Below, in pieces: positions 36,283-51,364 of a DNA stretch of 64,000 bases (positions within the stretch are counted from its first letter, which is position 1; each line of letters starts with the position of its first letter). A model generated the notes under the pieces. That model was not told the origin of the DNA, searched no databases, and saw only the letters and a list, made by a program, of their open reading frames with translations. This DNA comes from an uncultured Bdellovibrionales bacterium. Lineage in GTDB: Bacteria > Myxococcota > XYA12-FULL-58-9 > CAYXVF01. The position numbers and the translations under genes are program-made. The stretch lies in the NCBI GenBank assembly GCA_964468125.1, contig CAYXVF010000016.1, positions 5,538 through 69,537 on the forward strand, in the 5' to 3' direction.

Positions 36283-36406
36283 GGAATCCTCAGTGGGGAC
36301 ACTGTCGAGACCTAGTAAATGCACCCTCCCTCGGGGCGGACGATCCGTCAAATTCCTCGATCTCCCGGTCGCTTGCGGCGCTGCGCCGTCGGATTAGGTT
36401 GCCTGC

Positions 36407-38770
36407 ATGACCTTATCTCCGGAGATCGAAGAGCGCTGGTGTCGCGGCCGGGAAACGGTGCCCCGCGACGGCGCACTCGTCCTGTATTGGATGCGCACCG
36501 CCGTGCGCGCCTACGAAAATCCCGCTCTCGACGCGGCCCTACTGACCGCCCGTTCCCTGGGCGTACCGCTCCTCGTCTACCACGCCGTCTCCGAGCGCTA
36601 TCCTTACGCGAATGACCGGCATCACCACTTCATTCTCGAAGGGGCACGCGATGTCTCCCGTGAGCTCGCCGAGCGAGGCATTCCCTATGCGCTCCACGTC
36701 GAGCGGGAGGGAAATCGAGGGCCGCACCTGAAAACCCTCGGCCACCGCGCGGCGGTCGTCATCTCGGAGGAAATGCCGGTGAGCCCCCTCCGCGAGTGGA
36801 CCGAAACCCTCGCCGCTGCAATCGATGCACCGGTTTGGACCTTTGATACGGCGTGCGTCGTCCCGGTCACTCTGCCCGGCAAGCCCTACACACGCGCTTT
36901 CAAATACCGCGATGCGGTGAAGCGCTTTCGGCGCGATCGCATCGCCCGTGAGTGGCAGGAGCAGGAGGATCCTGGGGACGCGACGATCCCGGTCGAGCTT
37001 CCCTTCGACCCGGTGGACCTCGAAGTGACGTCAGCGGATGAGCTCGTTGCCGCATGCAGAATCGACCACTCGGTGGCGCCGGTGCCGCATACGCGGGGCG
37101 GCTCTGCGGCGGGTTATGCGCGCTGGGAGCGGTTCAAGGCGCGAGGGCTCAAAGCCTACGGGCGGACGCGAAACGACCCGCTCAAGGATGGGGTGAGCCG
37201 AATGTCTGCCTATCTCCACTACGGACACGTCTCTCCGCTGCGTCTGGCGCGCGAGGCTCACGCGGCGAAGGCGGAGAAGTACGTTGATGAGCTCGTAACT
37301 TGGCGCGAGCTCGCCTACACCTACTGCTACTACGAGTCGGATCTGGACACCGTGGAAGCGCTTCCGTCCTGGGCTCGGGAGACCTTTCGCGCTGGAGAGT
37401 GCGACCCGCGTCCCGCGCTCTATTCCTGGGAGACCTTGGCGCGCGCCCAAACCGGTGACGCGCTCTGGGATGCGTGTCAACGCTCGCTCCTGATCCATGG
37501 CGAGCTGCACAACAATGTGCGCATGACCTGGGGCAAAGCCTTCTCCCAGTGGACCCCAAACGTCGAGCGCGCGCTCGCGCTCGCGCTCGATCTCAACCAT
37601 CGCTATGCGCTGGACGGTCGGGATCCGAGCTCCTATGGCGGTATCTTGTGGTGCTTTGGCCAGTTCGATCGTCCCTTCTCGCCCGCACAGCCGATCATCG
37701 GGGTGGTGAGGCCGCGTCCTACGGAACAGCACGCCAGGCGCCTCGATGTTCGCGCCTATTCGGCGAAGACCGGTCGGCCGCTGGTGCACAACCCCCCAAA
37801 GGTCGCCGTGGTTGGCGCTGGGGTTGCCGGGATGATGTGTGCCCGGACACTGAAAGACCACGGCGTCCCAGTGGTGGTGTTCGACAAGGGGCGAGGAGCC
37901 GGTGGGCGAATGTCCACGCGGCGGGCAGAGCCGAGGGCGTTCGATCATGGCGCCCCGTACTTTGTTGCCAGGGACCGCACGTTTCGCCGCTACGTCACGA
38001 GCTGGCTCGAGGACGGAATCGTGGAGCGCTGGGCCGGTCGACCCGCGCGCCTCAGCGACGGCGTCATCCACTCTGACGACGGGCCGAAAGAGCGTTTCGT
38101 CGGCTCGCCCAGGATGTCGGCGGTGGTGGCCCATCTCGCCGAGGACCTAGACGTTCGCTTCGGCGCGGAAGTAACGTCCATGGTTCGCGAGGGTGGTGGT
38201 TTTCACGTTGTGCTCGGAGACGAGCGCTCTGGCCCCTTTGACCTCGTGCTCTTTGGTGCGCCCGCGCCACAGACCGCCCGGCTCGCACCCCTCTTCGCCG
38301 AACGCCTAGAGTCGGTGCGCTACCGGCCCGCATGGACGACACTGATCTCCCTCGATGAGGAGCCAGACGAGCTCCAATGGGACTCGCTCAAGGTCGAGAG
38401 CTCGATCGTTGCGTGGATCGCGCGCAATCACAAAAAGCCCGGCCGCGCGGATGCACCGAGCCTCGTCGTACAAGCGGAGCAGGGCTACAGCCTCGAGCAT
38501 CTCGAGGACCATGAGACGTCTGTTACCGGTGCCATGTGTGAGGCCGTCTCGACCCTCACAGGAATCTCCCCCTCGCGGATGGTGGAAGCGCGCGCGCATC
38601 GATGGCGCTATGCCCTCGTAGAGCAGGCGCTCGGTGAGCCCTGCCTTTGGGACGCGGACGCGGGGCTCGGTGTCTGTGGCGACGGGTGTCTCGGTCCGCG
38701 GGTCGAGGATGCGTTCTCGAGCGGCGTGGCTCTAGCCGGTCGTGTGCTCTCCTGGATGCGTGGTGCGTGA
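36407..38770 (+). CDS. Class II CPD photolyase fused to a renalase-like NAD(P)/FAD-dependent oxidoreductase domain
   Basis: 787 aa. Class II photolyase motifs in the N-terminal domain (LVLYWMRTAVRAYENPAL, MSAYLHYGHVSPLR, VTWRELAYTYCYY, LNHRYALDGRDPSSYGGILWCFGQFDRPF, ...RRLDVRAY). Short linker, then Rossmann dinucleotide motif VAVVGAGVAGM and FDHGAPYF (COG3380/renalase-like) through aa 787 with no intervening stop. Confidence 0.75.
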   Translation: MTLSPEIEERWCRGRETVPRDGALVLYWMRTAVRAYENPALDAALLTARSLGVPLLVYHAVSERYPYANDRHHHFILEGARDVSRELAERGIPYALHVEREGNRGPHLKTLGHRAAVVISEEMPVSPLREWTETLAAAIDAPVWTFDTACVVPVTLPGKPYTRAFKYRDAVKRFRRDRIAREWQEQEDPGDATIPVELPFDPVDLEVTSADELVAACRIDHSVAPVPHTRGGSAAGYARWERFKARGLKAYGRTRNDPLKDGVSRMSAYLHYGHVSPLRLAREAHAAKAEKYVDELVTWRELAYTYCYYESDLDTVEALPSWARETFRAGECDPRPALYSWETLARAQTGDALWDACQRSLLIHGELHNNVRMTWGKAFSQWTPNVERALALALDLNHRYALDGRDPSSYGGILWCFGQFDRPFSPAQPIIGVVRPRPTEQHARRLDVRAYSAKTGRPLVHNPPKVAVVGAGVAGMMCARTLKDHGVPVVVFDKGRGAGGRMSTRRAEPRAFDHGAPYFVARDRTFRRYVTSWLEDGIVERWAGRPARLSDGVIHSDDGPKERFVGSPRMSAVVAHLAEDLDVRFGAEVTSMVREGGGFHVVLGDERSGPFDLVLFGAPAPQTARLAPLFAERLESVRYRPAWTTLISLDEEPDELQWDSLKVESSIVAWIARNHKKPGRADAPSLVVQAEQGYSLEHLEDHETSVTGAMCEAVSTLTGISPSRMVEARAHRWRYALVEQALGEPCLWDADAGLGVCGDGCLGPRVEDAFSSGVALAGRVLSWMRGA

Positions 38771-39767
38771 CCCGCTCTTGAAAGTGACCGAGTCGGGTCT
38801 CTACTGCGCGCGCGGGGATTTTTACGTCGACCCCTGGCGCGGGGTGGAGCGCGCACTGATCACCCATGGTCACGCAGACCATGCACGCGCGGGCTCACGC
38901 CACTACTGGGCTGCGAGCGCCGGTGCACCGATTCTTCGACAACGTCTCCTCGAAATCGATCTCACCCCCGTGGACTATGGGAAAGCCTTCGAGCTCGGGG
39001 GTGTGCAGGTGTCCTTTCACCCCGCCGGCCACGTCTTGGGATCCGCGCAGGTACGCCTCGAGGCCGATCGGGAGGTGTGGGTGGTCTCCGGCGATTACAA
39101 GCGCTCGCCGGACCCGACGTGCCAGCCGTTCGAGGTGGTGCCCTGCGACGTTTTCATCAGCGAGGCGACCTTCGCTCTCCCGGTCTATCAGTGGCGGCCC
39201 GGCGAAGAGATCGCGCGCGAGATCCTCGCCTGGTGGGACGCAAATGCGAAGCGCGGTCGCAACTCCGTGCTCTTGTGTTACGCCCTCGGCAAAGCACAGC
39301 GAGTCCTCGCGGAGCTCTCGCAACTCACGGACCGTGGCGTCCACGTGCACGGCGCTGTCGATTCGATCGTTCAGCTCTATCGCGACTCGGGGATTGCAAT
39401 GCTCGACAGCGAAAAGGTCGACGGTCGTGACCAGCGCAAGAAGTTTCGTGGCGAGCTCGTCGTTGCTCCGCCCTCGGCGGCGGGGTCGACCTGGCTGCGC
39501 CGCTTTGGCGACTACCAGCTCGGCTTTGCGTCCGGCTGGATGCGTTTGCGGGGCTCGCGCCGACGCCGCGGCTACGACCGGGGCTTCATCCTCAGCGACC
39601 ATGCAGACTGGCCCGGACTCGTTGACACCATTCGTGCGACCGGCGCGCGCAAGGTGCTCGCCACCCATGGCTACACCGACGCGATCGTGCGCTATCTGCG
39701 GGAGGAGGGTGTCGACGCCGAGGCCCTCGAGACCGCCTTCGAGGGCGAAGGGGAGGGGGGTCAATGA
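38742..39767 (+). CDS. Ligase-associated DNA damage response exonuclease (MBL fold)
   Basis: LYCARGDFYVDPWRGVERALITHGHADHA and metallo-beta-lactamase His motifs. Start is GTG 38742 or GTG 38763. Overlaps the photolyase stop. Confidence 0.7.
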   Translation: MCSPGCVVRDPLLKVTESGLYCARGDFYVDPWRGVERALITHGHADHARAGSRHYWAASAGAPILRQRLLEIDLTPVDYGKAFELGGVQVSFHPAGHVLGSAQVRLEADREVWVVSGDYKRSPDPTCQPFEVVPCDVFISEATFALPVYQWRPGEEIAREILAWWDANAKRGRNSVLLCYALGKAQRVLAELSQLTDRGVHVHGAVDSIVQLYRDSGIAMLDSEKVDGRDQRKKFRGELVVAPPSAAGSTWLRRFGDYQLGFASGWMRLRGSRRRRGYDRGFILSDHADWPGLVDTIRATGARKVLATHGYTDAIVRYLREEGVDAEALETAFEGEGEGGQ

Positions 39768-41461
39768 GGCGGCTGGCGCATCTCTTCGAGGCCTTGGACC
39801 AGACGACCTCCACCAACGCGAAGGTCGATCACCTCGTCGATTACTTCTCCTCGACTCCCCCGGAAGACGCGGCTTGGACTGTTTTCTTTTTGACGGGCCG
39901 CCGCATGAAGCGACTGATCGGGTCGCGACAACTTCGCGCCTGGGTCGTTGGCGCCTGCGATTTGCCCGAGTGGCTCGTCAATGAATGTTACTCGGTGGTG
40001 GGGGACATCGCGGAGACGGTCGCTCTGCTGCTCGAGAACGACCGAGACACGGGCGAGGACGTGCCGCTCAACGCCTGGATGCGAGAGCGTATCGAGCCCT
40101 TGCGGCATCGGGATGAGCACTTTCAGCAGGAGTGCATCGTCGGTTGGTGGCGCGTACTCCCTACGCGAGAGATCTTCATCCTCAACAAGCTCCTCACCGG
40201 CGGTTTTCGCGTTGGGGTGTCGAAGACCCTCGTCGTGCGCGCCCTCGCGCGGGTGGCTTCGGTGGAACCTGCGACGGTTCAGCACCGTCTCATGGGACGC
40301 TGGACGCCGAGCGCGGAAGGTTTTTTGCGCATACTCTCTGACGACACGAGCGACGTCGATAGCTCGAAGCCCTATCCGTACTTCCTTGCCTCACCGCTGG
40401 AACGGGAGGTGGAAGAGTTGGGTCCCCGCGCGGACTGGGCGGCCGAGTGGAAGTGGGACGGAATTCGCTCGCAGCTGGTGGTCCGGGACGGGCAGGTTTT
40501 CTTCTGGTCCCGCGGCGAAGAGCTCGTCACCGAGCGCTATCCGGAGGTGAGCGAGGAACATGGCGTGCGGGACGGGACCGTGCTCGACGGCGAGATCCTC
40601 GCCTATCGTGACGGACCCCTGCCCTTCGCCGAGCTGCAGCGGCGAATCGGTCGCAAGACGGTCAGCGACGCCCTCTTGGATGATGTGCCCGTCGCCTTCA
40701 TGGCCTACGACGTGTTGGAGCACGAGGGACGTGACATTCGGGCAGAGCCGTTGAATGTCCGGCGCCGCGTCCTCGAATCGATCGTCGGGGCGTCGGGCCC
40801 GGCGATTGTGCTCTCGCCTCTGGTGGCAGGCGAGGGCTGGGAAGAGCTCGCGCGCCTCAGGGCCGAGTCGAGAGAGCGACGGGTGGAGGGCTTGATGCTC
40901 AAGCGCTGGAGCTCGCCCTACCGAGCAGGCCGAAAACGCGGCGACTGGTGGAAGTGGAAGATCGAGCCCTTCAGCATCGACGCGGTCATGGTCTACGCCC
41001 AGGCGGGACACGGGAAGCGAGCGAACCTCTACACGGACTACACCTTCGCAGTCTGGCAGGACGGCGAGCTGACCCCGGTGGCCAAAGCCTACTCGGGGCT
41101 CGACAACGAAGAGATCCGAAAGCTCGACCGCTGGATCCGAAAGAACACCGTCGAGAAGTTCGGTCCCGTCCGAAGCGTGACGCCCGCGCAGGTCTTCGAG
41201 ATCGCCTTCGAGGGGTTGCAGGCTTCGTCCCGCCACAAGTCCGGGGTGGCGCTGCGGTTTCCGCGTATCGCGCGCTGGCGTCAGGACAAGCGGATCGAAG
41301 AGGCGGACACGCTCGAGCAGCTCCAGGCGCTCTTGAAGATCGAGGGCGAGGCGGCGGTGGCCGCGAAGGGGAGGGAGGAGCTGCCGCGGACGGGCAAACG
41401 ACGTCGGCGAAAACCTCGAGGCCCAGAGCAGCTCGACCTGTTCCTGGAGGCCGAGCGTTGA
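39764..41461 (+). CDS. ATP-dependent DNA ligase (LigC-type, Lhr-associated)
   Basis: 565 aa. Adenylation motif I EWKWDGIR. OB-fold region. Start overlaps the exonuclease stop. Confidence 0.85.
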   Translation: MRRLAHLFEALDQTTSTNAKVDHLVDYFSSTPPEDAAWTVFFLTGRRMKRLIGSRQLRAWVVGACDLPEWLVNECYSVVGDIAETVALLLENDRDTGEDVPLNAWMRERIEPLRHRDEHFQQECIVGWWRVLPTREIFILNKLLTGGFRVGVSKTLVVRALARVASVEPATVQHRLMGRWTPSAEGFLRILSDDTSDVDSSKPYPYFLASPLEREVEELGPRADWAAEWKWDGIRSQLVVRDGQVFFWSRGEELVTERYPEVSEEHGVRDGTVLDGEILAYRDGPLPFAELQRRIGRKTVSDALLDDVPVAFMAYDVLEHEGRDIRAEPLNVRRRVLESIVGASGPAIVLSPLVAGEGWEELARLRAESRERRVEGLMLKRWSSPYRAGRKRGDWWKWKIEPFSIDAVMVYAQAGHGKRANLYTDYTFAVWQDGELTPVAKAYSGLDNEEIRKLDRWIRKNTVEKFGPVRSVTPAQVFEIAFEGLQASSRHKSGVALRFPRIARWRQDKRIEEADTLEQLQALLKIEGEAAVAAKGREELPRTGKRRRRKPRGPEQLDLFLEAER

Positions 41462-43962
41462 GCGGGAAGGAGGCACGTCGCGCGGCGATCCGCGCCCGGC
41501 TAAAGCGCAAGCCGACGCTGCCCGTGCGCGCGCCCGTCGCGAAGGACGGTCGAGCGGTCGTGGAGGGTTGGTTTCGGAGCCTTGGCTACGCCCCCCATCC
41601 CTTTCAAGTCGAGGCATGGGATGCTTTTGCGCGCGGTGAGAGCGGACTGATTCAGGTCCCCACGGGCTCCGGCAAGACCTACGCCGCCTATCTCGGCGCG
41701 CTCGCGGAGATCTTGGAGGCCGAAGAGGAGGGCCTGAAAATTCTCTACATCACGCCGCTGCGTGCGGTCACCCGTGACGTGGAGCTCGCCCTCCGACGGC
41801 CCGTGGAGGAGCTCGAGCTTCCCTTGCGCGTCGAGTCTCGCACCGGCGATACGAGCCAATCGACGCGCGCGCGCCAGAAGATGCGCATGCCTGACGTGCT
41901 CGTCACTACGCCGGAGTCGCTCGCTCTGCTCCTGACCTACGGGGACGGGGTGGAGCGCTTCTCCGCGCTGCGAGCGGTGATTGTCGATGAGTGGCATGAG
42001 CTCCTCGCAACCAAGCGCGGCGCCTTACTCGAGCTGTCGCTCTCACGGGTGCGGGCGCACGCTCCCCGGGTTCAGACCTGGGCGCTCTCGGCTACACTCC
42101 GAAATCTCGAGGAAGCGGCGCAGGCCGCGGTGGGTATGGGCCTCGAGCCGCGGGTGATCCGCGGGCGGATCGAGCGCCCGATCGACGTGCAGACCCTCCT
42201 CCCTGACGATCGCGAACGCCTGCCGTGGGCCGGGCATCTGGGTCTGAGCATGCTCGACGTCGTCCTCGATTATCTGGACCCGGAGCACCCGACGCTCCTG
42301 TTCACGAACGTGCGTTCCCAGGCCGAGCGTTGGTACCAAGCGATCGTCGAAGCGCGACCCGAGTGGTCCGAGCTGCTGGCCCTGCACCACGGCTCCCTCG
42401 ACCGGGAGGAGCGCGAGCGCGTGGAGGAGGGTCTGAAGTGCGGCGCGCTTCGCATTGTCGTGTGTACGAGCTCCCTCGACCTCGGCGTCGACTTCGCACC
42501 CATCGAGCGCACGATTCAGCTCGGCTCGATCAAAGGGGTGGCCCGAATCCTTCAGCGCGCGGGGCGCAGCGCTCACCGCCCCGGCGCTACGGCCCGTGTC
42601 GCTTGCGTCCCGACCCATGCGTTTGAGCTGATTGAAGTCGCCGCGGCGAAGATGGCGATCGCGCTCGGTGAAATCGAGGGGCGAAAGCCTCAGAACAAGC
42701 CACTCGATGTCCTGGCCCAACATCTCGTGACCTGCGCGCTCGGCGGAGGATTCACCCGTGAGTCGATCACTGAGGAGGTCCGGAGTGCCTATGGGTTTCG
42801 TACGCTCACGGACGAAGAGCTCGAGTGGACCCTCGAGCTCGTGACCGTTGGCGGACCCACGCTTAGGGCCTATGAGGAGTATCAGCGGGTCCGCGTGTAC
42901 GAGGATCGCTATCTCGCCCGCGACAAGAAGGTTGCAACCAGCCACCGACTCTCCATCGGAACCATCGTTGCCGACGCTGCCATTCAGTTGCGTTACAAGA
43001 GCGGTCGGGTGATCGGAACGATCGAAGAGAACTTCATCGCCAAGCTGAATCCGGGTGAGAAGTTCCTCTTTGCTGGAAAAGCGCTCGAGCTCTTGGAGCT
43101 GAAGAACCTCGACGCCTATGTGAAGACTGCTCGAGGGCAGGTCACTTTCACGCCCCGGTGGGCGGGGGGGCGCTTGCCGTTGTCCGACACGTTGTCGTTC
43201 TCCGTCCGTCGGGCGCTCGACGAGGCCTCTAGAGGTGGCTTCGAGGGCGTGGAAATGGACCGTGCGCGGGAGCTGCTCGAGACGCAAGCTCGACACTCGC
43301 ACGTACCGCGCTTGAACGAGGTGCTCTTCGAGGTCTGCCGCACGCGCGAAGGTCAGCATCTCTTCGTCTTTCCTTTCGACGGGCGGGCGGTGCACGAAGG
43401 CCTGGCGGCGGTGTTGGCGCTTCGGCTCGGGCGCGAAGCGCCCGGAACCTTCTCCATCGCGGTGAATGACTACGGATTGGAGCTCCTCCACCCGGACGAG
43501 TACGACTACTCGAGCCGACTCACGGACGCCCTTTTTGACCCGGAGACGCTCGCGGAGGATGCACTACAGAGCATGAACGTGAGCCAGCTCGCGAAGCGTC
43601 AGTTTCGTGAGATCGCCCGCGTTGCGGGTCTCATCGTTCAGCCCTACCCCGGGGCGCGGCGCAGCTTGAAGCAGCTACAGGCGAGCAGCTCGTTGATTTA
43701 CGACGTGTTCGAGCGCTACGACCCTGAGAATCTGCTTCTGGCCCAGGCGCGTCGCGAGGTGCTCGAGCACTACTTCGAGCAGAGCCGTCTGGGCGAGACG
43801 CTGCGCCGACTTCGGAGCGATTCGCGGGTGGTACGCGAGGTCCAGCACCCGACGCCGCTCGGTTTGCCGCTCGTGATCGAACGCGTGCGCAACCAGCTCT
43901 CCACCGAATCCATCGAGGACCGGATCGCGCGCATGAAGCGCCAGTGGGCGGAGATCGCTTGA
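41458..43962 (+). CDS. Ligase-associated DNA damage response DEXH-box helicase (Lhr-like)
   Basis: TTG 41458 overlapping the ligase TGA (alternative GTG at about 41524). Walker A PTGSGKT, DEWH box, helicase C motifs (QRAGRSAHRPG). About 830 aa. Confidence 0.8.
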   Translation: MSGKEARRAAIRARLKRKPTLPVRAPVAKDGRAVVEGWFRSLGYAPHPFQVEAWDAFARGESGLIQVPTGSGKTYAAYLGALAEILEAEEEGLKILYITPLRAVTRDVELALRRPVEELELPLRVESRTGDTSQSTRARQKMRMPDVLVTTPESLALLLTYGDGVERFSALRAVIVDEWHELLATKRGALLELSLSRVRAHAPRVQTWALSATLRNLEEAAQAAVGMGLEPRVIRGRIERPIDVQTLLPDDRERLPWAGHLGLSMLDVVLDYLDPEHPTLLFTNVRSQAERWYQAIVEARPEWSELLALHHGSLDREERERVEEGLKCGALRIVVCTSSLDLGVDFAPIERTIQLGSIKGVARILQRAGRSAHRPGATARVACVPTHAFELIEVAAAKMAIALGEIEGRKPQNKPLDVLAQHLVTCALGGGFTRESITEEVRSAYGFRTLTDEELEWTLELVTVGGPTLRAYEEYQRVRVYEDRYLARDKKVATSHRLSIGTIVADAAIQLRYKSGRVIGTIEENFIAKLNPGEKFLFAGKALELLELKNLDAYVKTARGQVTFTPRWAGGRLPLSDTLSFSVRRALDEASRGGFEGVEMDRARELLETQARHSHVPRLNEVLFEVCRTREGQHLFVFPFDGRAVHEGLAAVLALRLGREAPGTFSIAVNDYGLELLHPDEYDYSSRLTDALFDPETLAEDALQSMNVSQLAKRQFREIARVAGLIVQPYPGARRSLKQLQASSSLIYDVFERYDPENLLLAQARREVLEHYFEQSRLGETLRRLRSDSRVVREVQHPTPLGLPLVIERVRNQLSTESIEDRIARMKRQWAEIA

Positions 43963-44054: not shown

Positions 44055-46100
44055 CTAGAATGCAGCACTCAGCGTCAGCCGAGCACTGAGCGGCGGCCCG
44101 GGGGCCACGTGCGCACTCGGCAACGCGCTCCCCGAGGTCGGCCAACGGCTCGGAAACTGATAGGCGCCTTCGTAGTTTGCTTGATTCAGCAGATTGTCCG
44201 CTGCCGCCTCGACACGATACCGCCCCCAGTCATAGCCGGCGACCGCGCTCGTGATCCAAAGCCAGTCGCTTTGGCCGCCAAACGGGAGATTCCGCGGCCC
44301 GACGGTTACCGCATGTAGTCCGCCGAAGAAGCCACCCAGCGGCCGGACGATCGCGTGGGCGCCGGCGACGAGTGAGGGTGCGAGCGGTACCGGGTCGTTG
44401 GATTCGCGCAGGCGAGCGCGCACCCAAGTGACGTCCGCCCGCAGCTCAATCGCTGCGCTCACCCGCCAGAGCGTCGCGAGCTCGACACCGAGCCGCTCGG
44501 TTGCCCCGAGCTCGACACTCGCCCCGGACACGTGGTCGAAGATCGACTCTCGCTCGATGAATGTAGCAAAGCCGGCCGCGGAGAGCTCGAGGGGGCCGAA
44601 GGTGAGTCGCGAGCCAACCTCCACCGCGTCGTTGACTGTCGGCTCCGCCCGAGGTGCGGTGGCGTCGTCAAAGCCGAGCTCGTCTCGCGCGATCCCCGCA
44701 AATGCGGCCAGCTCGGGCGGCCGAAGCCCGCGTCCGTAGGCGGCAAAGAGCTCGACGAACGTCCCCGGTCGATAACGCACTGACGCCCGCGGCGACACGA
44801 CCACACGGGTTCCGTTACCGCGCCGCCCTTCGAGTCGGTCCTCGACCTTTGTCACCGTGGCGCCATCGACGCGACCGCCGAAATCGACCCGGAGCGCGCG
44901 ATTCGGAGCATAACGAAACGAAGCGCCGGAGTGCCACGCCACCTGGGTGCCAGCGAGGTTGCGATTCTCTGCGAGACGCTCACCGTTCAGGCCGACTTGC
45001 CACTCATTCTGCGCCACTCGCTCGGACCGTGCCGAGCCGTTTACGAGCACCGCCCATGCTTCATCCAGCTCGTGAAGGTGATCCAATGAAAAACCGAGCA
45101 TCACACTCTCATGGCGCTGCTCCAGGGCATCGCCATTCACGGGGTCGTCGAGAAATCCCGTGAAATTCTCGAGCAGCGAAAGATTGCGCGCCATGGCGTA
45201 GAGCTGTGCCTCGGTGTTCGCACCAGCGTCGCGTCGGTCATAGTTCAGACTCAACAAGGCGCGCCGGCTTTCGCCGCCCCAACGCTCGTCGCCGTAGCTG
45301 TCGCGCAGCGCAATGCGTTCGGCCTCGACGTCTTCTAGTCGAACGATGCCCGGGAGCTCAAATCGAGCTGCGTTCGCCGCGACGAGCAAATCGAGCTGCG
45401 ATGCACCACTGGAATACAAGCGCGCGCGTCCCGTGGCCCCCGCACGTCGGGCGGCGCGCCGCTCTCCGAAACCCGCGTCCGTCATCACTTCGGCGGTCAA
45501 GAAGGTGGGGTCGTCGACCGCGAGGGGGGCGTAGCTGACGAGCAAACGGTGACGGTTGGTCGTACCCGCGGTGTACCACCCGCGCACCCCGCGATTGCGG
45601 GCCGAGACGCCGAGGGAGTAGCCAATCGAGCCCGCGACCGCGAATGGACCTTGAGCGATGCTGAAGGGTCCCTTCGTGACCTCGACCTCGGAAATGATCT
45701 CCGGCGGAATGAGCGACAATTCGATGTAGCCCGTCGCGTGCACATTCGACCACTCGTTGAACGGAACCCCCGCGACCCGCGCCTCGATGTCGGCGCCGTG
45801 CAACGCATCAAAGCCACGAACGAAGAACTGGTAGCCTTTGCCTTCCGACCCATGCTGGACCAACACGAATCCCGGCACGAGCCGAATCGCGTCGTCGGCG
45901 GTGCGCAGTGACGCGGTCGCGAGCTCTTCGTCGTGCAAGCGAACGGTCGAGGCGGTTTCGGGGACGGGCTGCTTCACCTCGACGCGCACCGTCGTCTCGA
46001 ACCCCTCGAAGTCCTCGAAGTTGTTCGTCGGCGGGTCGTCGGCGGTCGCCGCCGGTGCGACGACCGCCCAGGTGAGCAGAAAAAACGGGCTCATGGCCAC
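44055..46100 (-). CDS. TonB-dependent receptor
   Basis: 681 aa. Signal peptide. Plug region. Terminal ...LTLSAAF (C-terminal Phe). Confidence 0.7.
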   Translation of the reverse strand: MAMSPFFLLTWAVVAPAATADDPPTNNFEDFEGFETTVRVEVKQPVPETASTVRLHDEELATASLRTADDAIRLVPGFVLVQHGSEGKGYQFFVRGFDALHGADIEARVAGVPFNEWSNVHATGYIELSLIPPEIISEVEVTKGPFSIAQGPFAVAGSIGYSLGVSARNRGVRGWYTAGTTNRHRLLVSYAPLAVDDPTFLTAEVMTDAGFGERRAARRAGATGRARLYSSGASQLDLLVAANAARFELPGIVRLEDVEAERIALRDSYGDERWGGESRRALLSLNYDRRDAGANTEAQLYAMARNLSLLENFTGFLDDPVNGDALEQRHESVMLGFSLDHLHELDEAWAVLVNGSARSERVAQNEWQVGLNGERLAENRNLAGTQVAWHSGASFRYAPNRALRVDFGGRVDGATVTKVEDRLEGRRGNGTRVVVSPRASVRYRPGTFVELFAAYGRGLRPPELAAFAGIARDELGFDDATAPRAEPTVNDAVEVGSRLTFGPLELSAAGFATFIERESIFDHVSGASVELGATERLGVELATLWRVSAAIELRADVTWVRARLRESNDPVPLAPSLVAGAHAIVRPLGGFFGGLHAVTVGPRNLPFGGQSDWLWITSAVAGYDWGRYRVEAAADNLLNQANYEGAYQFPSRWPTSGSALPSAHVAPGPPLSARLTLSAAF

Positions 46101-46814
46101 TCAGTTAGCGTCGCAATGACCTTCACCATCGACGTGTCCGAGATTCCCAACCAGAGCAGTGAGGTATGCCCACATGTCGTTGGCGCCGCTGTTGCCGGGG
46201 TCGTAGGCACCGACGTCGGCGGCCGCGAGCTCAGCTTCGGTGATCACCCCGTCCGAATCCCCATCCGCGTTGGCGATGGGGTCGAAGAAGAGCGATGGCT
46301 CCTCGGCGACCAGGCTGTCGTAGAGGAGGTGGTCCGCGTGCACGGTGATTTGAAACGTTGCCGTGCCACCTCCCTCCACCACCGTGGTGGTCTCGCAGTT
46401 GCTGTAGGTCACGCGTGCGGGAAAGCGCCAGTCGAAGGACTTGGTCACGCCCTGCCGCTCCGCGGTTCCAATGACGTGAATGCCGCCCAGGACGTAGCGC
46501 GGGGCGTTGAACTCGCCCGCCTCGACCGAGCCTCGCGACAATTCGTGCCCGGCCCCGTCGCTCGCCACCGCGAGCTCGACCGTTCCGAGGTCCGAGAACA
46601 CCCGGCCGGCCACCTCGACCTCTTCCACCTCGACCTCAAAGCTCGAGAAATCGACCGACCAGCCATCGCCGACCTCGCTGGCGGCAATGCCGAGCTCGAT
46701 GAAGTCCTCGCCGTAGGCGGTCACCACGACCTCGCCTTCACTGTCGCCGCAGGCAGCCACGCTCGCGAGAGCCAGGCCCAGCGCCAAGGGTATGATTTTC
46801 CGTTTCACGTTCAC
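46101..46814 (-). CDS. Lipoprotein with EF-hand-like Ca-binding loop
   Basis: 237 aa. Lipobox LASVAAC|G. DGDSDGVITEAE (aa 184-195, coordinates about 46230-46265) matches the canonical 12-residue EF-hand loop. C-terminal GHVDGEGHC. Its stop abuts the receptor start. Confidence 0.5.
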   Translation of the reverse strand: MNVKRKIIPLALGLALASVAACGDSEGEVVVTAYGEDFIELGIAASEVGDGWSVDFSSFEVEVEEVEVAGRVFSDLGTVELAVASDGAGHELSRGSVEAGEFNAPRYVLGGIHVIGTAERQGVTKSFDWRFPARVTYSNCETTTVVEGGGTATFQITVHADHLLYDSLVAEEPSLFFDPIANADGDSDGVITEAELAAADVGAYDPGNSGANDMWAYLTALVGNLGHVDGEGHCDAN

Positions 46815-47584
46815 TCCTCCAAAATCATCTCGAAATAGTCGTGCGACAGCAGACGCCGCTGCACGGTGTAGAAAGACACGACGACCGCCGGCGTTGCGGC
46901 GGTCTCTTCCAAGACCAAGGGATCGGGCATCGCACCGAAGTCGACGCCGTCAAACAGGTGCCGCTCGGGGCGGAACGGCTCGGTGGTGGAAAAGCGAAGC
47001 ACGACCCGTCGCGCCCCGCTCTCCGCCACCTCGACCTCGAAGGGCACCCCGACGAGCTTGCGGTCCGCGGGAGCCACCACGTGCACCTCGAAGGGCACGC
47101 TCTGGCCATCACGGGTCGCGCGTCCACGGAGGTGGATCGAAAGCCCGAGACGCGCGTCGTCGCCGGCTAGCCCGTCTTCCGTCCCGAAGGTGGAAAACGT
47201 GACGTCCAGGGCGTCGTACGTCGTCGCGAGCAGGACCGCTTCGCCGATCGACTCCTCCGCCAGGAAATCCACGACGAAGCGACCCGGCAGCACGCCGAGC
47301 GTATCGCCGCTCTGCACGTGACCGGGATGTGCGTGTGCGCTCGGCACGAGCCAATCGCTGACCTGTTCGAGCCACGCCGTCTCGCGCGCCCCGTAGCTCA
47401 GAAACTCGAAGTCACTGAAGCTCATCGTCACCGCTTCGAGCTCGACATTGAACCCGAGATCGGTCGATGCGACCGAGTTCAGCAATTCGGCCTGCACCGG
47501 TACGGTCACCTCGGCGACGTCCGAGCCGCCCCCGCACGCGCACGAAAGCACGGCGAGGAAGGCGGCATGCCTTCCCTTCTTCAT
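46811..47584 (-). CDS. Lipoprotein (His-containing, unknown function)
   Basis: GGAGA ribosome-binding site then ATG 47584. Lipobox VLSCAC|G. HAHPGH motif. Stop overlaps the downstream lipoprotein start. Confidence 0.5.
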   Translation of the reverse strand: MKKGRHAAFLAVLSCACGGGSDVAEVTVPVQAELLNSVASTDLGFNVELEAVTMSFSDFEFLSYGARETAWLEQVSDWLVPSAHAHPGHVQSGDTLGVLPGRFVVDFLAEESIGEAVLLATTYDALDVTFSTFGTEDGLAGDDARLGLSIHLRGRATRDGQSVPFEVHVVAPADRKLVGVPFEVEVAESGARRVVLRFSTTEPFRPERHLFDGVDFGAMPDPLVLEETAATPAVVVSFYTVQRRLLSHDYFEMILEE

Positions 47585-47780
47585 CGCAATTCTCCACCGG
47601 GCCCCATTCAAAGCCTCGCCAGAGCGTGCGCACCATCACGCACGAAGCCGAGGACCTTCGATCGGGCCTATGAGTGTCTAGGCAGATGCAGACGCGCCTG
47701 CGTCAATGAGACGCGGCCGCTCTGAGGATCGCGCGAGCAGTCGAAGACTCGTCCTGCGGGAGGGGCGATTAACGCTCTCA

Positions 47781-48374
47781 TCAGGAGAAACCAATCGTCC
47801 GCGGCAACCCTCTAAGGCCATAGGAGGCGGGCGGCGCGCGCGGCGCAGTCGCCAAGTCGAGCTCAAACGGAGGTGCCGACCGAGCCACCGGCCGCGGCGG
47901 TTCGGCGAGCAGGGTCGCGATGCCGGCCTCGTGAACGAACGGCGCGGCCGTGAAGCTGAGAAGCGTGAAGTGGCTGGTGCTGTCGCCGGTATGACCGGTG
48001 GACGAGCGCTCGTCCGTCTCAGGCGCGTCGTGCTCGGGGTGCGCTTCCCGGTCGGTGTCCGTCGGCGCGGGCGGGGCGGCTCGTTGCTCCGGCCTCGGCT
48101 CGGAAGCGGGGAGCGTGGCGGAGTTGCGACCCGCGTCCGGTTGGTGGTCGCGCGGCGCCGCGTTTCGATGCGCGGGCGGCGGCTCGTGCGAATCGGCGGG
48201 CGGTGGCGCCTCTCGGTGATACACCACGCGCCCATCCGGGAGGTGGGTATGCCGGCCCTGCAGCGCGTGGGTCAGCACGTGCGCGAGCGGGCTTGCCACC
48301 AGGTGGCCCGCGCCGAAAGCCGCCGCAAGCGCAAATAAAAAGCCTAGACGGCGCGTCGAGGGTCGTCGTGTCAT
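47781..48374 (-). CDS. Possible His/Pro-rich low-complexity secreted protein
   Basis: 197 aa. N-terminal hydrophobic segment (LGFLFALAAAFGAGHLVA). High third-position GC in this frame. Overlapping plus-strand ORFs are Arg-rich shadow frames. Low confidence. Confidence 0.3.
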   Translation of the reverse strand: MTRRPSTRRLGFLFALAAAFGAGHLVASPLAHVLTHALQGRHTHLPDGRVVYHREAPPPADSHEPPPAHRNAAPRDHQPDAGRNSATLPASEPRPEQRAAPPAPTDTDREAHPEHDAPETDERSSTGHTGDSTSHFTLLSFTAAPFVHEAGIATLLAEPPRPVARSAPPFELDLATAPRAPPASYGLRGLPRTIGFS

Positions 48375-48484
48375 CCCGCAAGAATGGGAATAACTCGGGC
48401 AGCCTCATCACGACAAGCGCTCTCGTCGCCGCGCCTGATCTCGGTCAAGTCTACTGGATAGAAGGCGTGCGGGCGGGAAACCGC

Positions 48485-48512
48485 GAAAGGGGGAGCTATG
48501 CGGCATCCGAAG
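48485..48512. repeat. 28-bp direct repeat, copy A (gaaagggggagctatgcGgcatccgaag)
   Basis: Matches 49256-49283 at 27/28 positions. Contains GGGGGAG and ATG (48498). Confidence 0.85.
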
Positions 48513-48956
48513 TCACTCTTCGAGCTCTTCGACGTCCGCTGCGTCTTTGGTTCGGCCAGTCGCCTTTTTGTTGCGAAGGAGCTCCGACCGCCCGAGGAAC
48601 CGCACGGGGATTCCGTCGAGCACGCCTGCTTCACTTCCGTTGATGGCATCGTCGAAGGACACCGCGGTGATTCCGGTGAGCAGGTCGATTCTCTGGGGGG
48701 GCAGACCGAGCTGAATGATCTGGTCGGGCTTTTCGAAGTCTTCCGCGGTGAGGCCCGTCTCCTCAAACCCGAAGGCGCTCAGTACGTCGACGATCTTCCG
48801 GCCACTCTCGGCCGTTGGCCGCACAAAAAAATCGATATCGCCCGTGTAGCGGGGGTAGCCGTGGTAGGCGACCGCGTGGGCGCCGACGATGACGTACTCA
48901 ACGCCGGCCGAGTTCAACAACTCGACAAACTCGCGCAAATCCTTGCTGAGCTTCAT
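48513..48956 (-). CDS. Pol-beta-superfamily nucleotidyltransferase (AbiEii/MNT-like small NTase)
   Basis: 147 aa. NTase motif hG...GDIDFFV (VGAHAVAYHGYPRYTGDIDFFV). C-terminal K..D..D..L (RTKDAADVEELEE). Stop codon (48513-48515) immediately abuts repeat copy A. Confidence 0.65.
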   Translation of the reverse strand: MKLSKDLREFVELLNSAGVEYVIVGAHAVAYHGYPRYTGDIDFFVRPTAESGRKIVDVLSAFGFEETGLTAEDFEKPDQIIQLGLPPQRIDLLTGITAVSFDDAINGSEAGVLDGIPVRFLGRSELLRNKKATGRTKDAADVEELEE

Positions 48957-49089
48957 CGTCCTGTCCGCGATGGCTGGCGACCAGCTCGAGCAAAATGTCG
49001 AGCCGTTGCACCGGGGTCAGCGACCGATAGTACCGTCGGTCGGCGCGTCTGGCCAGGTCGTGGCTGGAAAAGACCTGAATACGGCGCAT
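48898..49089 (-). CDS. Small partner ORF of the NTase cassette (possible antitoxin-like protein)
   Basis: 63 aa (MRRIQVFSSHDLARRADRRYYRSLTPVQRLDILLELVASH...). 3' end overlaps the NTase start by about 59 nt. Helical and charged. No recognised motif. Confidence 0.35.
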   Translation of the reverse strand: MRRIQVFSSHDLARRADRRYYRSLTPVQRLDILLELVASHRGQDDEAQQGFARVCRVVELGRR

Positions 49090-49253
49090 GGCTCCACAAT
49101 AAGCGGACGCGGCCCATCGAGCAAACGAACCGCTCGCCGGGCCGTGAGCGGGCGCATCGGCTCCACACGCCACGTGATCCAGATCAGGCGGACCCGTGAC
49201 CTGGGCATTGGAGAACAACCCCCCTCTTCGGCGACCTAGAAGGGCCGCGAGCC

Positions 49254-50675
49254 ATGAAAGGGGGAGCTATGCAGCATCCGAAGGAGCGCGTGGTCGCGAT
49301 TGTGGGCGGCGGATTGTCCGGACTCGCGATTGCGGAGGCCATTCAGCACCGTTCCCAGGGCGAGGCGGTGCGGCCGATCGTCCTCGAGGCGGAATCCGCG
49401 CCCGGCGGCAAGGTCCGCTCCGAGCGTCAGGGGGGCTTCGTGGTGGAAACCGGTCCCCACGGGTTTCTCGGCCGGGAGGTCAAAGTGTTCGAGCTGATCG
49501 AGCGCTTGGGACTCAACGGCGAAATGGTCCGCGCGGACCCGGCGAGTGCGAAACGCTTCCTCGTGAGTCGCGGCAAGCTGCGCGAGGTCAAGATGTCGCC
49601 CTTCGGCTTCATGACGAGTGGGTTGCTGTCTCCCTGGGGACGTCTCCGGGTCGTGATGGAAGCCTTCGTGAAGGCGGACTCGAAGGCGCACGAGAGCGTC
49701 GCAGACTTCGCGAAGCGGCGGATCGGCAAGGAAGCCGCGAACGTGATGGTCGACGCGATGGTCACGGGGATCTACGGCGGCGACCCGGAGGACCTCGCAC
49801 TCGAAGCGGCGTTCCCGCGCATGGTGGAGCTCGAAGAAAACTACGGCTCGCTCATTCGCGCGCAATTCGCTCTCGCCAAAGAGCGGCGCGGCGAGACCGA
49901 GGACGAGAAGGAGAGGCGGCAAAACCTGCACAGCTTCCGCAATGGTCTTCAGACCTTGGTCGATGGACTCGTCGGTGCGGTCCCGGACGTTCGGACTTCC
50001 GCGTCGGTGGATCGCATCGTGCCCACTCGCGACGGGTTCGAGCTGATGGGCAGCTTCGGCAACCTGCGCGCGGACTCGGTCGTGTCCTGTGTGCCCGCGA
50101 GCGCGCTCGGAAAGATGCTCGAGGGAGCGGGTCCCCAAGCCCTCGTCCAGCGGGCAACCGACCACCGCTTTGCGCCGGTGAACGTCGTGGTTCTCGGTTT
50201 CAACGCCAAGGACATTCGTCGGAAACTCAATGGCTTTGGTTACTTGGCGCCGCATTCGGAGGGCCGGGACCTGCTCGGATGCGTGTGGGGTGACTCCGTG
50301 TTCCCGCAACATGCGCCGGAGGGACAGGTGCTGTTGCGCTGCATGATGGGAGGCATGCGCAACGCCGGTCTCACCACCTTGGACGACGGGGAGCTGGTCG
50401 ATCGCTGCCGCACGGAGCTGGTGCAAATGATCGGTCTCGACCCGGAGGCGCTGCCGACGATGCAAGCGATCTTCCGCTGGCCCGAAGGGATCCCGCAGTA
50501 CGACGCGGAGCACTCGGCACGTCTGATGGCCGCGCGCGAGCTCGAGCACGGGCTTCCGGGGTTGGTGATCGCCGGGAATTCCTACACCGGAGTCGCGATG
50601 ATCGAGTGTATCGCGAATGCGGAAAAGGCCGCGGAACAGGCGCTCCGGGACATCGCGACCGCCGCTGCGGCGTGA
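49254..50675 (+). CDS. Protoporphyrinogen/coproporphyrinogen oxidase (HemY/CgoX family, FAD-dependent)
   Basis: 473 aa. VAIVGGGLSGLAIA dinucleotide motif. Amine-oxidase-type fold. Start is ATG 49254 or 49269. Confidence 0.75.
   Translation: MKGGAMQHPKERVVAIVGGGLSGLAIAEAIQHRSQGEAVRPIVLEAESAPGGKVRSERQGGFVVETGPHGFLGREVKVFELIERLGLNGEMVRADPASAKRFLVSRGKLREVKMSPFGFMTSGLLSPWGRLRVVMEAFVKADSKAHESVADFAKRRIGKEAANVMVDAMVTGIYGGDPEDLALEAAFPRMVELEENYGSLIRAQFALAKERRGETEDEKERRQNLHSFRNGLQTLVDGLVGAVPDVRTSASVDRIVPTRDGFELMGSFGNLRADSVVSCVPASALGKMLEGAGPQALVQRATDHRFAPVNVVVLGFNAKDIRRKLNGFGYLAPHSEGRDLLGCVWGDSVFPQHAPEGQVLLRCMMGGMRNAGLTTLDDGELVDRCRTELVQMIGLDPEALPTMQAIFRWPEGIPQYDAEHSARLMAARELEHGLPGLVIAGNSYTGVAMIECIANAEKAAEQALRDIATAAAA
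49256..49283. repeat. 28-bp direct repeat, copy B (gaaagggggagctatgcAgcatccgaag)
   Basis: Contains the functional ribosome-binding site and start region of the protoporphyrinogen oxidase-like gene. Confidence 0.85.
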
Positions 50676-50719
50676 GCCACGGGTCGCGCGGGACGAGCTG
50701 ATTCGCTAAACCATCCGTC

Positions 50720-51364
50720 ATGGTTGAGGCAGCGGTCGAGGTCGAGCTCGCATCCGAGAAGGTCCTGTTGTTGCCGGGGCGCGCGATGTTCTGGCCGAAA
50801 CGGCGGGTTCTGTTCGTTGCGGACCTGCACTGGGGCAAACGCGAGGCGTTCGTCGTGGAGGGCGTCCCTCTTCCGGATGGGGTACTACGCGACGACCTGT
50901 CTCGGCTCGAGAACCTGATTCAGGCGCATTCGGTCGAGCGGGTCGTCGTTCTAGGCGATCTGATTCACAACCGCGCGGGAATCACGGAGGCGGTGGTGGA
51001 GCAGGTCGCCGCGTTTCGCGCCCGGGGACCGGAGATGTGGCTCATCCGCGGCAACCACGACCGCCACCTGCCGCGTCTGCCTGCGTGCTGGCGGATCGAG
51101 GAGCACCTCGATCGATGCGAACCGCCGTTCGTCTACACCCATGTGCCACGCGACGATCCGGGCGGCTACGTACTCGCCGGCCACGTGCACCCGGCCTTGC
51201 GGCTACGCACCCGCGGGGACGGCCTGCGCGTTCCCTGTTTTCACATCGGGCCGAGCTTCGCGGTGCTTCCCGCGTTCAGCGCCTTCACCGGCGGCGCGGT
51301 GGTCACGCCCAAGCCCGGCGAACGCGCCTTCGCGATCGCGGGCGATCGGGTGATCGAGGTCTAG
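50720..51364 (+). CDS. pdeM: Ligase-associated DNA damage response endonuclease PdeM (metallophosphoesterase)
   Basis: 214 aa. FVADLHWGK, VVVLGDLIH, GNHD, GHVHPA motifs. Confidence 0.75.
   Translation: MVEAAVEVELASEKVLLLPGRAMFWPKRRVLFVADLHWGKREAFVVEGVPLPDGVLRDDLSRLENLIQAHSVERVVVLGDLIHNRAGITEAVVEQVAAFRARGPEMWLIRGNHDRHLPRLPACWRIEEHLDRCEPPFVYTHVPRDDPGGYVLAGHVHPALRLRTRGDGLRVPCFHIGPSFAVLPAFSAFTGGAVVTPKPGERAFAIAGDRVIEV

Follow-up and report, generated by a model that had tools for sequence, protein, structure and literature searches.

A single uninterrupted gene in a contig of an uncultured Bdellovibrionales bacterium joins a class II-type cyclobutane pyrimidine dimer (CPD) photolyase to a renalase-type flavin adenine dinucleotide (FAD) oxidase. 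The contig, CAYXVF010000016.1 of assembly GCA_964468125.1 (GTDB lineage Bacteria; Myxococcota; XYA12-FULL-58-9; CAYXVF01), was analyzed from position 5,538 to position 69,537 of its forward strand. This whole stretch of 64,000 nucleotides (nt) is hereafter called the window, and all positions are counted from its first letter. We consider it probable that the 787-amino-acid (aa) product is a genuine bifunctional enzyme with two flavins, belonging to a large family, whose oxidase would act on dihydro forms of NAD(P). In the window, its gene would head an operon coupled with the genes of an exonuclease (Exo), an ATP-dependent DNA ligase (Lig) and an Lhr-type helicase.

A Photolyase and an Oxidase in One Reading Frame

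The open reading frame (ORF) of the fusion runs intact from an ATG at 36407 to the stop codon at 38768–38770. A preliminary description of this DNA, made from the letters alone, had proposed that a complete class II photolyase is fused in frame, through a 14-aa linker, to a renalase-like FAD oxidoreductase. The domain matches bear this out. The strings that it quoted are all present: RRLDVRAY ends at residue 451, VAVVGAGVAGM starts at residue 466, and FDHGAPYF occupies residues 512–519. The positions of the first two leave the 14-aa linker within one uninterrupted ORF.

The photolyase half is matched at residues 22–454 by TIGR00591 (class II photolyase, phr2), over profile positions 21–452 of 453, with a score of 306 bits (E = 5e-91). 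Models of class I and DASH photolyases score only 1e-5 to 1e-9 on the same half. Among known structures, the class II enzyme of M. mazei (MmCPDII, 2XRY) matches with E = 9e-58, compared with 1e-6 for class I structures. The alignment is full length with both the M. mazei and the rice (3UMV) class II structures, and a Foldseek comparison of the AlphaFold model with class II photolyases gave TM-scores, normalized to the target, of 0.85–0.91. Residue numbers of MmCPDII (chain number minus 18) were transferred through the alignment with 2XRY. In the fusion protein, W354/W375/W382 correspond to the class II Trp triad W360/W381/W388, N397 to the Asn facing N5 of the FAD (N403), and W299/W415 to the two Trp that sandwich the lesion (W305/W421). 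All of these residues are invariant in 120 of 120 family proteins, as are R372 and M373 of the fusion protein, and R255, N256 and E295 are invariant in the 42 sequences of a second alignment. The CPD-lesion pocket of MmCPDII (R256, N257, E301, W305, M379, W421) is represented by R255, N256, E295, W299, M373 and W415, without variation. Only the equivalent of Y345 varies among the photolyase residues mapped in this way. The N-terminal half thus belongs with the class II-type CPD photolyases and is predicted to be functional.

The Oxidase Half and Its Pocket

Residues 465–780 of the fusion protein match the Pfam and NCBIfam models Amino_oxidase and NAD_binding_8. The oxidase half aligns end to end with Pseudomonas renalase (4ZCC/3KKJ, chain residues 5–326; E = 2.5e-50), and human renalase gives a weak match. 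The AlphaFold model superimposes on the bacterial renalase with a TM-score (normalized to the target) of 0.94 and a root mean square deviation of 1.7–1.8 Å, at 34% identity. The FAD-binding GxGxxG and GD motifs are kept, G470, G472, G475, G758 and D759 being conserved. We take the Pseudomonas enzyme (4ZCC and related entries) to be a 2-/6-dihydro-NAD(P) oxidase. The names of PDB entries for its structures, 4ZCC and 5KRQ among them, state complexes with NADH, NAD+ and NADPH.

The pocket was studied on an alignment of 120 fused domains, 112 standalone homologues and the 4ZCC sequence. The standalone homologues are about 330–360 aa long, share 39–47% identity and come from the same phyla as the fusion. 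Fused and standalone oxidases have 59 positions with a common residue that is conserved to at least 90% in each group, and Pseudomonas renalase agrees at nearly all of them. At the level of the family, the fused domain therefore resembles an ordinary renalase-type oxidase. Four residues, D484, H485, R528 and G778, are conserved in the fused form only.

The window protein itself departs from the family at ten of the 59 positions: Q517P, T520V, W599F, C642A, A661L, W686L, H689Q, W694Y, L710M and W760G. Its three closest relatives are also substituted at five of the ten (T520V, C642x, A661x, W686L/Y and H689Q), and three of the positions substituted throughout this clade are those of T59, W229 and H232 in Pseudomonas renalase. 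These clade-level statistics cover four lineages, the window and three relatives. Pocket residues retained in the window protein are R501, D513, Y518, W542, R563, Q622, W670, K677, R680, H731 and W733. Across the whole fusion family the oxidase half has changed more quickly than the photolyase half: identity in the C-half relative to that in the N-half has a family median of about 0.80, and this ratio lies at 0.66–0.76 in the window's clade. Members of this clade are 47–56% identical in their oxidase halves, with intact FAD motifs. We read the pocket of the window's clade as remodeled, yet under selection. The exact substrate of the oxidase in this Myxococcota-like clade may thus differ.

A Linker of Fixed Length and a Predicted Rigid Body

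Exactly 20 residues lie between D447 and G468, the first Gly of GxGxxG, in 117 of 120 homologues, and a T-x-R-P motif is conserved in the linker. The AlphaFold model of the window protein, built on an alignment of 42 sequences, has a mean predicted local distance difference test score (pLDDT) of 92 and a predicted TM-score (pTM) of 0.92; the 10-residue blocks that cover the linker average 91–94 in pLDDT. A 50%-identical protein from the planctomycete Rubripirellula, modeled on a separate alignment, reached a pTM of 0.91. For a two-domain chain of about 800 aa, such values mean that the relative placement of the domains is predicted with confidence to be fixed. Combined with the constant linker length, they argue that the two halves form one rigid body rather than beads on a string. 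No PDB entry matching both halves was found with Foldseek.

A Widespread Family of Fused Photolyases

The fusion architecture is widespread and not specific to the window. The best 120 matches in a collection of 5.8 billion proteins are 50–76% identical to the fusion protein and 750–851 aa long, apart from one partial sequence. They cover 75–100% of the query, and 95–100% when the partial sequence is set aside. For more than 100 of the 120, the identity lies at 50–66%. Proteins from isolates are found among them, in Rubripirellula reticaptiva, Stieleria marina and Neorhodopirellula lusitana. In contigs taken from one genome per species, at least 575 stretches encode a relative of the fusion. 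Both domains (residues ~22–781) are spanned in all of the 80 best of these genome loci and in a further 80 metagenome loci, and it is in these 160 loci that the two-domain structure was verified. The carriers belong mostly to Planctomycetota, and also to Gemmatimonadota, Geminicoccaceae/Rhodospirillales (Alphaproteobacteria), Acidobacteriota and Myxococcota. The named matches closest to the window are Myxococcota metagenome-assembled genomes (MAGs). The metagenome scan gave no relative closer than 58% identity to the fusion; one metagenome fragment (P0121) covers 87% of the oxidase half, with 100% identity.

When the photolyase half by itself was the query of an exhaustive HMMER search, 948 representatives of 50%-identity clusters matched at E ≤ 1e-30. 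Among the best 150 of these, 126 have a length of 700 aa or more and match through their N-terminal half, and only about five look like complete standalone proteins, for instance those of 489 and 503 aa. This photolyase clade is thus essentially defined by the fusion.

The preliminary description had allowed that a sequencing error removing a stop codon might have created the junction, and that close relatives might always carry the two domains as separate polypeptides. A missing stop at the junction is ruled out by the conservation of junction length and sequence in 117 of 120 homologues. The close relatives carry the same fusion, which belongs to a large family in which at least 160 loci were verified to hold the two domains. 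The complete chromosomes of two isolates, Stieleria marina K23_9 and strain SH139, also carry the fusion.

In public databases the fusion appears under the labels "FAD-dependent oxidoreductase," "photolyase PhrII" and "deoxyribodipyrimidine photo-lyase." Full-text searches of the open-access literature found no paper describing it, which is not proof of absence. Both domain families and the Lhr cluster are known, and the fusion is present in databases. What the window adds is the fusion as the first cistron of a proposed Exo-Lig-Lhr operon without an adjacent gene for the endonuclease MPE, and the clade-specific remodeling of the pocket.

Three of the matches deserve separate mention. The closest MAG relative (P0004, 76% identical; L170/L171, GCA_039819745.1, JBCBRK010000084.1) lies on a contig of 4,054 nt in which one truncated gene occurs twice, in inverted orientation. 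The contig looks like an assembly palindrome, and no context is gained from it. One match to the photolyase half (P0311) is a gene model of 4,593 aa with seven photolyase N-domains, probably merged tandem photolyases. Another (P0389), of 1,141 aa, has an N-terminal XPA_C domain and a photolyase domain later in the chain, and would represent a further repair protein fused to a photolyase.

The Exo-Lig-Lhr Array

In the window, the genes of Exo, ligase and Lhr follow the fusion gene on the same strand (table 1). The preliminary description had reported one co-directional array of the fusion, the MBL exonuclease, the ATP-dependent ligase and the Lhr-type helicase, in which the fusion gene overlaps the start of the exonuclease gene. 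The array stands as described, overlap included, and what it lacks is the canonical fourth gene, that of the endonuclease MPE/PdeM, found 6.7 kb downstream. Homology to the N-terminus of the orthologue in locus L081 places the likely Exo start at GTG 38760 or 38763 (the longest ORF begins at GTG 38742), so that it overlaps the stop codon of the fusion by 8–11 nt. The ligase ATG at 39764 overlaps the Exo stop (ATGA) by 4 nt, and the Lhr TTG at 41458, set through the N-terminus of the L081 Lhr, overlaps the ligase stop (TTGA) by 4 nt. A 1004-aa Lhr ORF starting at 40948 was rejected, as its segment 40948–41457 is an over-extension that reads the last part of the ligase gene in a different frame. 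Terminator-like sites number four, against 4.5 expected, and none inside the array rises above chance.

The array is not due to chance, since its four genes have full-length, high-scoring family matches and orthologous arrangements are conserved elsewhere. Because the gene ends overlap, no internal terminator stands above chance and the array recurs in relatives, we propose that the fusion, Exo, Lig and Lhr-Core genes form a translationally coupled operon. They would be transcribed together, possibly under induction by light or DNA damage. Upstream, the fusion gene is divergent from a minus-strand gene for a sulfatase-family lipoprotein, which likely starts at a MRRIIVLLPLFLFAC signal peptide. 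At its other end the array stops at 43962, convergent with a minus-strand gene for a TonB-dependent receptor (44055..46100).

Table 1. Features of the Fusion Gene and of the Associated Array in the Window
Feature	Position	Strand	Basis or remark
Divergent intergenic region, presumed promoter region of the operon	36283..36406		Between the sulfatase-family lipoprotein gene and the fusion gene
Fusion gene, 787 aa	36407..38770	+	Class II-type CPD photolyase joined to renalase-type FAD oxidase
Photolyase domain, aa 22–454	36470..37768	+	TIGR00591, 2XRY, Foldseek
Interdomain linker, aa 452–465	37760..37801	+	T-x-R-P motif, constant spacing
Renalase-type FAD oxidase domain, aa 465–783	37799..38755	+	4ZCC full-length homology; clade-specific pocket substitutions
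Exo, ligase-associated MBL exonuclease	38760..39767	+	TIGR04122, 487 bits (cut-off 325)
ATP-dependent DNA ligase, 565 aa	39764..41461	+	TIGR04120, 628 bits (400); PRK09247, 725 bits (543)
Lhr-Core-type DEXH helicase, 834 aa	41458..43962	+	TIGR04121, 1047 bits (850); WH_Lhr and DEAD_assoc domains
MPE/PdeM endonuclease	50702..51364	+	TIGR04123, 204 bits (cut-off 150)

The MPE/PdeM gene starts 27 nt after a protoporphyrinogen oxidase gene (49200..50675, plus strand; TIGR00562, 269 bits), an unexpected pairing. A minus-strand block (44055–49016) separates Lhr from this pair. It comprises the TonB-dependent receptor gene and the ORFs 46101..46814, 46811..47611 and 48513..49016, which have no family match. 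The block may be an insertion that split a canonical four-gene cluster.

The ligase of the window ends in a basic tail of 39 aa (residues 527–565; 41345–41461, plus strand), terminating in ...RRRRKPRGPEQLDLFLEAER and containing QLDLF. The tail is absent from the ligases of loci L081 and L146. The QLDLF sequence fits QL[SD]LF, which we take to be the consensus for binding to the beta-clamp.

Gene Neighborhoods in Relatives

The preliminary description had combined photoreactivation with ligase-dependent repair in one array. This is found in the window and in some relatives; as a general feature of the family it does not hold, as only about 10% of lineages show some linkage of this kind. In the relative P0001 (66% identical; four contigs, L081–L084), a minus-strand sulfatase gene is followed by the fusion, Exo, Lig and Lhr genes, overlapping as in the window. 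In P0003 (64%), a 332-aa gene overlaps the end of the fusion gene, and the contig breaks off within the next one; the two presumably encode Exo and the ligase. The third close relative, P0002 (62%), keeps the synteny upstream and has unrelated genes downstream, with no ligase operon. A gene overlapping the end of the fusion in the position of Exo is thus present in two of the three close relatives (P0001 and P0003).

Farther away, locus L146 (51% identical, 73% GC) has the fusion, Exo, Lig and Lhr in the order of the window; the Exo start overlaps or abuts the stop of the fusion, and no MPE follows. In loci L006, L095/096, L104 and L118/119, an Exo gene 44–49% identical to that of the window lies next to the fusion gene in divergent orientation, at a distance of about 200 nt. 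Neither a ligase nor an Lhr homologue was detected anywhere in these loci, and Exo may here act together with the photolyase fusion alone. At the same divergent position, L079 has a 60-aa Exo fragment. The flanks of the divergent-Exo loci and of L146 hold no further repair genes. Two other layouts were seen: in L128, MPE and Lhr genes lie on the opposite strand, divergent from the fusion, and in L064 an Lhr-like gene and MPE lie upstream of it on the same strand.

Among the first 80 genome loci, a ligase gene was found in none, Exo in two and Lhr in one. After the metagenome loci were added, 9 of 90 fusion clusters (70% identity) have Exo, Lig, Lhr or MPE genes as neighbors, and a family-wide linkage to the ligase operon was rejected. 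As a control, 28 unrelated genes of the window were searched in the same 160 loci: 25 have no homologue there, two have one and one has five. The last is an ABC transporter ATPase, from a multi-copy family; Exo had seven. The link between the fusion and Exo-Lig-Lhr is therefore real in a minority of lineages, occurs in at least five arrangements and lies far above the control.

Other neighbors are commoner. Neighbor identities in L001–L080 were assigned by reading the sequences, with no profile scan. A COG3046-like photolyase-related protein is encoded in 15 of the 80 loci, mostly divergently upstream, a short-chain dehydrogenase/reductase (SDR) in 16, a second protein of the cryptochrome/photolyase family in nine and a squalene/phytoene synthase in nine. 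An HpnE-like oxidase gene lies directly upstream in eight of the 80, and Nei/Fpg directly downstream in five. Read in this way, the genes more often found beside the fusion, in Planctomycetota as in other phyla, also relate to light or damage.

Renalase and Photolyase Genes in Pseudomonas

A renalase gene also keeps company with a photolyase gene outside the fusion family. A protein 95% identical to the 4ZCC sequence (P0391) heads a co-directional run of genes in two Pseudomonas species (L172, 7001–14987; L173, 7001–14990). The run continues with DUF2389 (L172 only), RudS, a MerR/B12-binding LitR-type regulator, the class I photolyase PhrB, SnoaL, an SDR, a 415-aa amine oxidase, DUF1365 and CFA synthase. 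Within this LitR/RudS/PhrB cluster the renalase gene lies 2.2 kb upstream of phrB. The Pseudomonas operon encoding PhrB, LitR and RudS is controlled by LitR and light inducible (PMC11417400), and the phrB cluster includes an SDR, an FAD-dependent oxidoreductase and UfaM (PMC9758184). By position, this "FAD-dependent oxidoreductase" is most likely the 415-aa amine oxidase and not the renalase.

The earlier claim that homologues of the oxidoreductase are normally separate genes in light-induced photolyase operons thus agrees with the Pseudomonas cluster; it does not extend to the four closest standalone relatives of the window oxidase, considered below. Renalases are associated with photolyases twice, by neighborhood with a class I enzyme in Pseudomonas and by fusion with a class II-type enzyme here.

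A Proposed Mechanism

In the bifunctional enzyme that we consider probable, the photolyase half would bind CPDs induced by ultraviolet (UV) light and split them by light-driven electron transfer from reduced FAD, this FAD being recharged through the class II Trp triad. The oxidase half, held rigidly by the linker of fixed length, would handle the nicotinamide-dinucleotide chemistry that accompanies illumination, oxidizing non-canonical dihydro-NAD(P) species back to NAD(P)+. Such species could arise from one-electron oxidation of NAD(P)H, including its reduction of the photolyase Trp radical. One-electron NAD(P)H oxidation at the Trp radical would yield off-pathway nicotinamide species of the kind that renalases remove. 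Attachment would let the oxidase act where these by-products form. The operon, in turn, would make direct photoreversal and the dark repair by helicase, nuclease and ligase together. A rationale for the physical coupling is offered by a reported effect of NAD(P)H on class II photolyase photoreduction (Ignatz et al. 2018, Photochem Photobiol 94:81, as cited in PMC12723161).

Several observations weigh against this proposal. The photolyase half, with 306 bits, does not reach the TIGR00591 cut-off of 550 bits, and for this reason we regard it as a divergent sister clade of the canonical class II enzymes. The ten deviations of the window oxidase are the most found among the 232 sequences, in which the median is one. 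The family as a whole keeps the equivalents of Q56, W229, H232, W237 and W303 of Pseudomonas renalase in more than 90% of homologues, whereas at the positions of Q56, W138, W229, H232, W237 and W303 the window protein has P, F, L, Q, Y and G. These pocket deviations make canonical renalase chemistry least certain in the window protein. The standalone homologues share the same conserved residues, so the oxidase needs no photolyase partner, and none of the four standalone relatives closest to the window oxidase adjoins a photolyase gene (0/4). As for the operon, about 90% of the fusion lineages are without linkage to the Lhr cluster. A scan for sigma-70-like promoters upstream of the fusion gene found none, an alignment of the window with the syntenic relatives L081 and L085 revealed no conserved upstream motif, and no light-sensing regulator or damage-response operator was identified upstream of the gene.

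Alternative Explanations

It is possible, though clearly less probable than the bifunctional enzyme, that the two halves act independently and that the renalase half performs general repair of NAD(P)H isomers with no catalytic cross-talk. The fusion would then merely secure equal production of both under light or UV stress. In keeping with this, Pseudomonas has both functions as separate genes in one light-related neighborhood, the conserved residues are common to fused and standalone oxidase domains, and a few standalone members (489 and 503 aa) lie inside the clade of fused photolyases. However, co-expression alone would tolerate linkers of variable length, and the linker is constant in 117 of 120 homologues and carries a conserved motif. 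Both AlphaFold models, with pTM values of 0.91–0.92, are single rigid bodies, and D484, H485, R528 and G778 are conserved only in fused oxidases.

Rather unlikely overall, yet a serious possibility for the window protein because of its remodeled pocket, is that the oxidase of the window's clade has lost or changed its catalysis. It would now be a structural, DNA-handling or regulatory appendage matched to Exo-Lig-Lhr. The FAD motifs and most pocket residues are kept, and the oxidase half is still 47–56% identical within the clade and hence under selection, which speaks against this reading. Moreover, P0002 shares the substitutions with no operon link, and L146 has the operon link outside the clade. 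The case for a change of role comes from the clade substitutions at near-invariant positions (T520V, C642x, A661x, W686L/Y and H689Q), to which the window adds Q517P, W599F, W694Y and W760G. It also draws on the lowered ratio of C-half to N-half identity (0.66–0.76, against a family median of 0.80) and on the overlapping Exo gene in two of three close relatives.

Could the oxidase half instead supply electrons? It would bind NAD(P)H and pass reducing equivalents to the terminal Trp radical or to the FAD of the photolyase, whose flavin would be kept in its active reduced state, possibly without light. Characterized renalases are oxidases that use O2 as the electron acceptor and show little reaction with ordinary 1,4-NAD(P)H, which makes this improbable. 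The pocket residues, being the same as in standalone oxidases, likewise argue for unchanged chemistry. In its favor, the renalase fold binds NAD(P)H beside FAD, judging from the PDB entry names of 4ZCC and 5KRQ, and the two-domain body is predicted to be rigid. The effect of NAD(P)H on class II photoreduction, as stated in PMC12723161 with reference to Ignatz et al. (2018), would also suit it.

That an assembly or sequencing artefact removed a stop at the junction is a negligible possibility: at least 160 loci have both domains with a conserved junction, the fragment P0121 matches the window, and nothing was found in its favor.

Significance

The fusion overturns nothing established. It offers a concrete entry to three questions, namely the role of bacterial renalases, the reduction of photolyases in vivo and the substrates of the Lhr cluster. 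For the first, a rigid fusion in at least 160 loci across several phyla, together with the Pseudomonas neighborhood, points to light or UV stress. For the second, a candidate is at hand in the attached domain, whose fold is of the NAD(P)-binding kind. For the third, Exo-Lig-Lhr-Core-MPE genes repeatedly stand beside that of a CPD photolyase, which suggests that the cluster acts on UV photoproducts or on intermediates of photoproduct processing.

Taken further, the bifunctional enzyme might be a self-servicing photolyase, an idea that we put forward as speculative and doubtful. The coupled oxidase would dock NAD(P)H for the Trp-triad radical or consume NAD radical or isomer by-products, and in the window's clade it would have become a re-tooled, light-dependent front end of an Exo-Lig-Lhr pathway that shed MPE. 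If true, this would identify an in vivo photoactivation partner of class II-type photolyases and give bacterial renalase a physiological role as a light-stress enzyme.

Comparison with Known Systems

According to the account of Ejaz and Shuman (2018) given in PMC7826289, the published cluster of P. putida consists of Exo-Lig-Lhr-Core-MPE. The array of the window shows the same co-directional order of Exo, ligase and Lhr-Core. All three proteins score above the cut-offs set for the "ligase-associated DNA damage response" equivalogs of NCBIfam, and the genes overlap at their ends. Unlike the P. putida cluster, a photolyase-oxidase gene is added at the 5′ end and MPE is missing at the 3′ end, lying 6.7 kb off. 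The layout of L146 is that of the window, with the fusion in front and no MPE at the end.

As in the LitR-controlled phrB cluster of Pseudomonas (PMC9758184, PMC11417400), renalase and photolyase functions are kept together with light-stress genes. In that cluster, however, they are separate genes, the photolyase is of class I and a LitR-type regulator is present; no such regulator was found in the window.

The oxidase half shares the fold, the FAD motifs and most of the conserved pocket residues of the renalase of Pseudomonas phaseolicola/P. syringae (4ZCC, 4ZCD, 5KRQ, 3KKJ). Here, unlike there, it is a domain and not a free protein. The W229 and H232 positions are replaced throughout the window's clade, and in the window protein those of Q56, W138, W237 and W303 are replaced too.

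With MmCPDII (PDB 2XRY, 2XRZ, 4CDN) and the rice enzyme (3UMV), the photolyase half has in common full-length homology, the Trp triad, the flavin-facing Asn and the CPD-binding residues. It differs from them in a structure-aligned identity of only about 28%, in its TIGR00591 score (306 vs 550 bits) and in the lack of conservation of the Y345 equivalent. The photolyase of the fusion belongs to a separate clade, whose members are almost always extended by an oxidase domain of about 330 aa.

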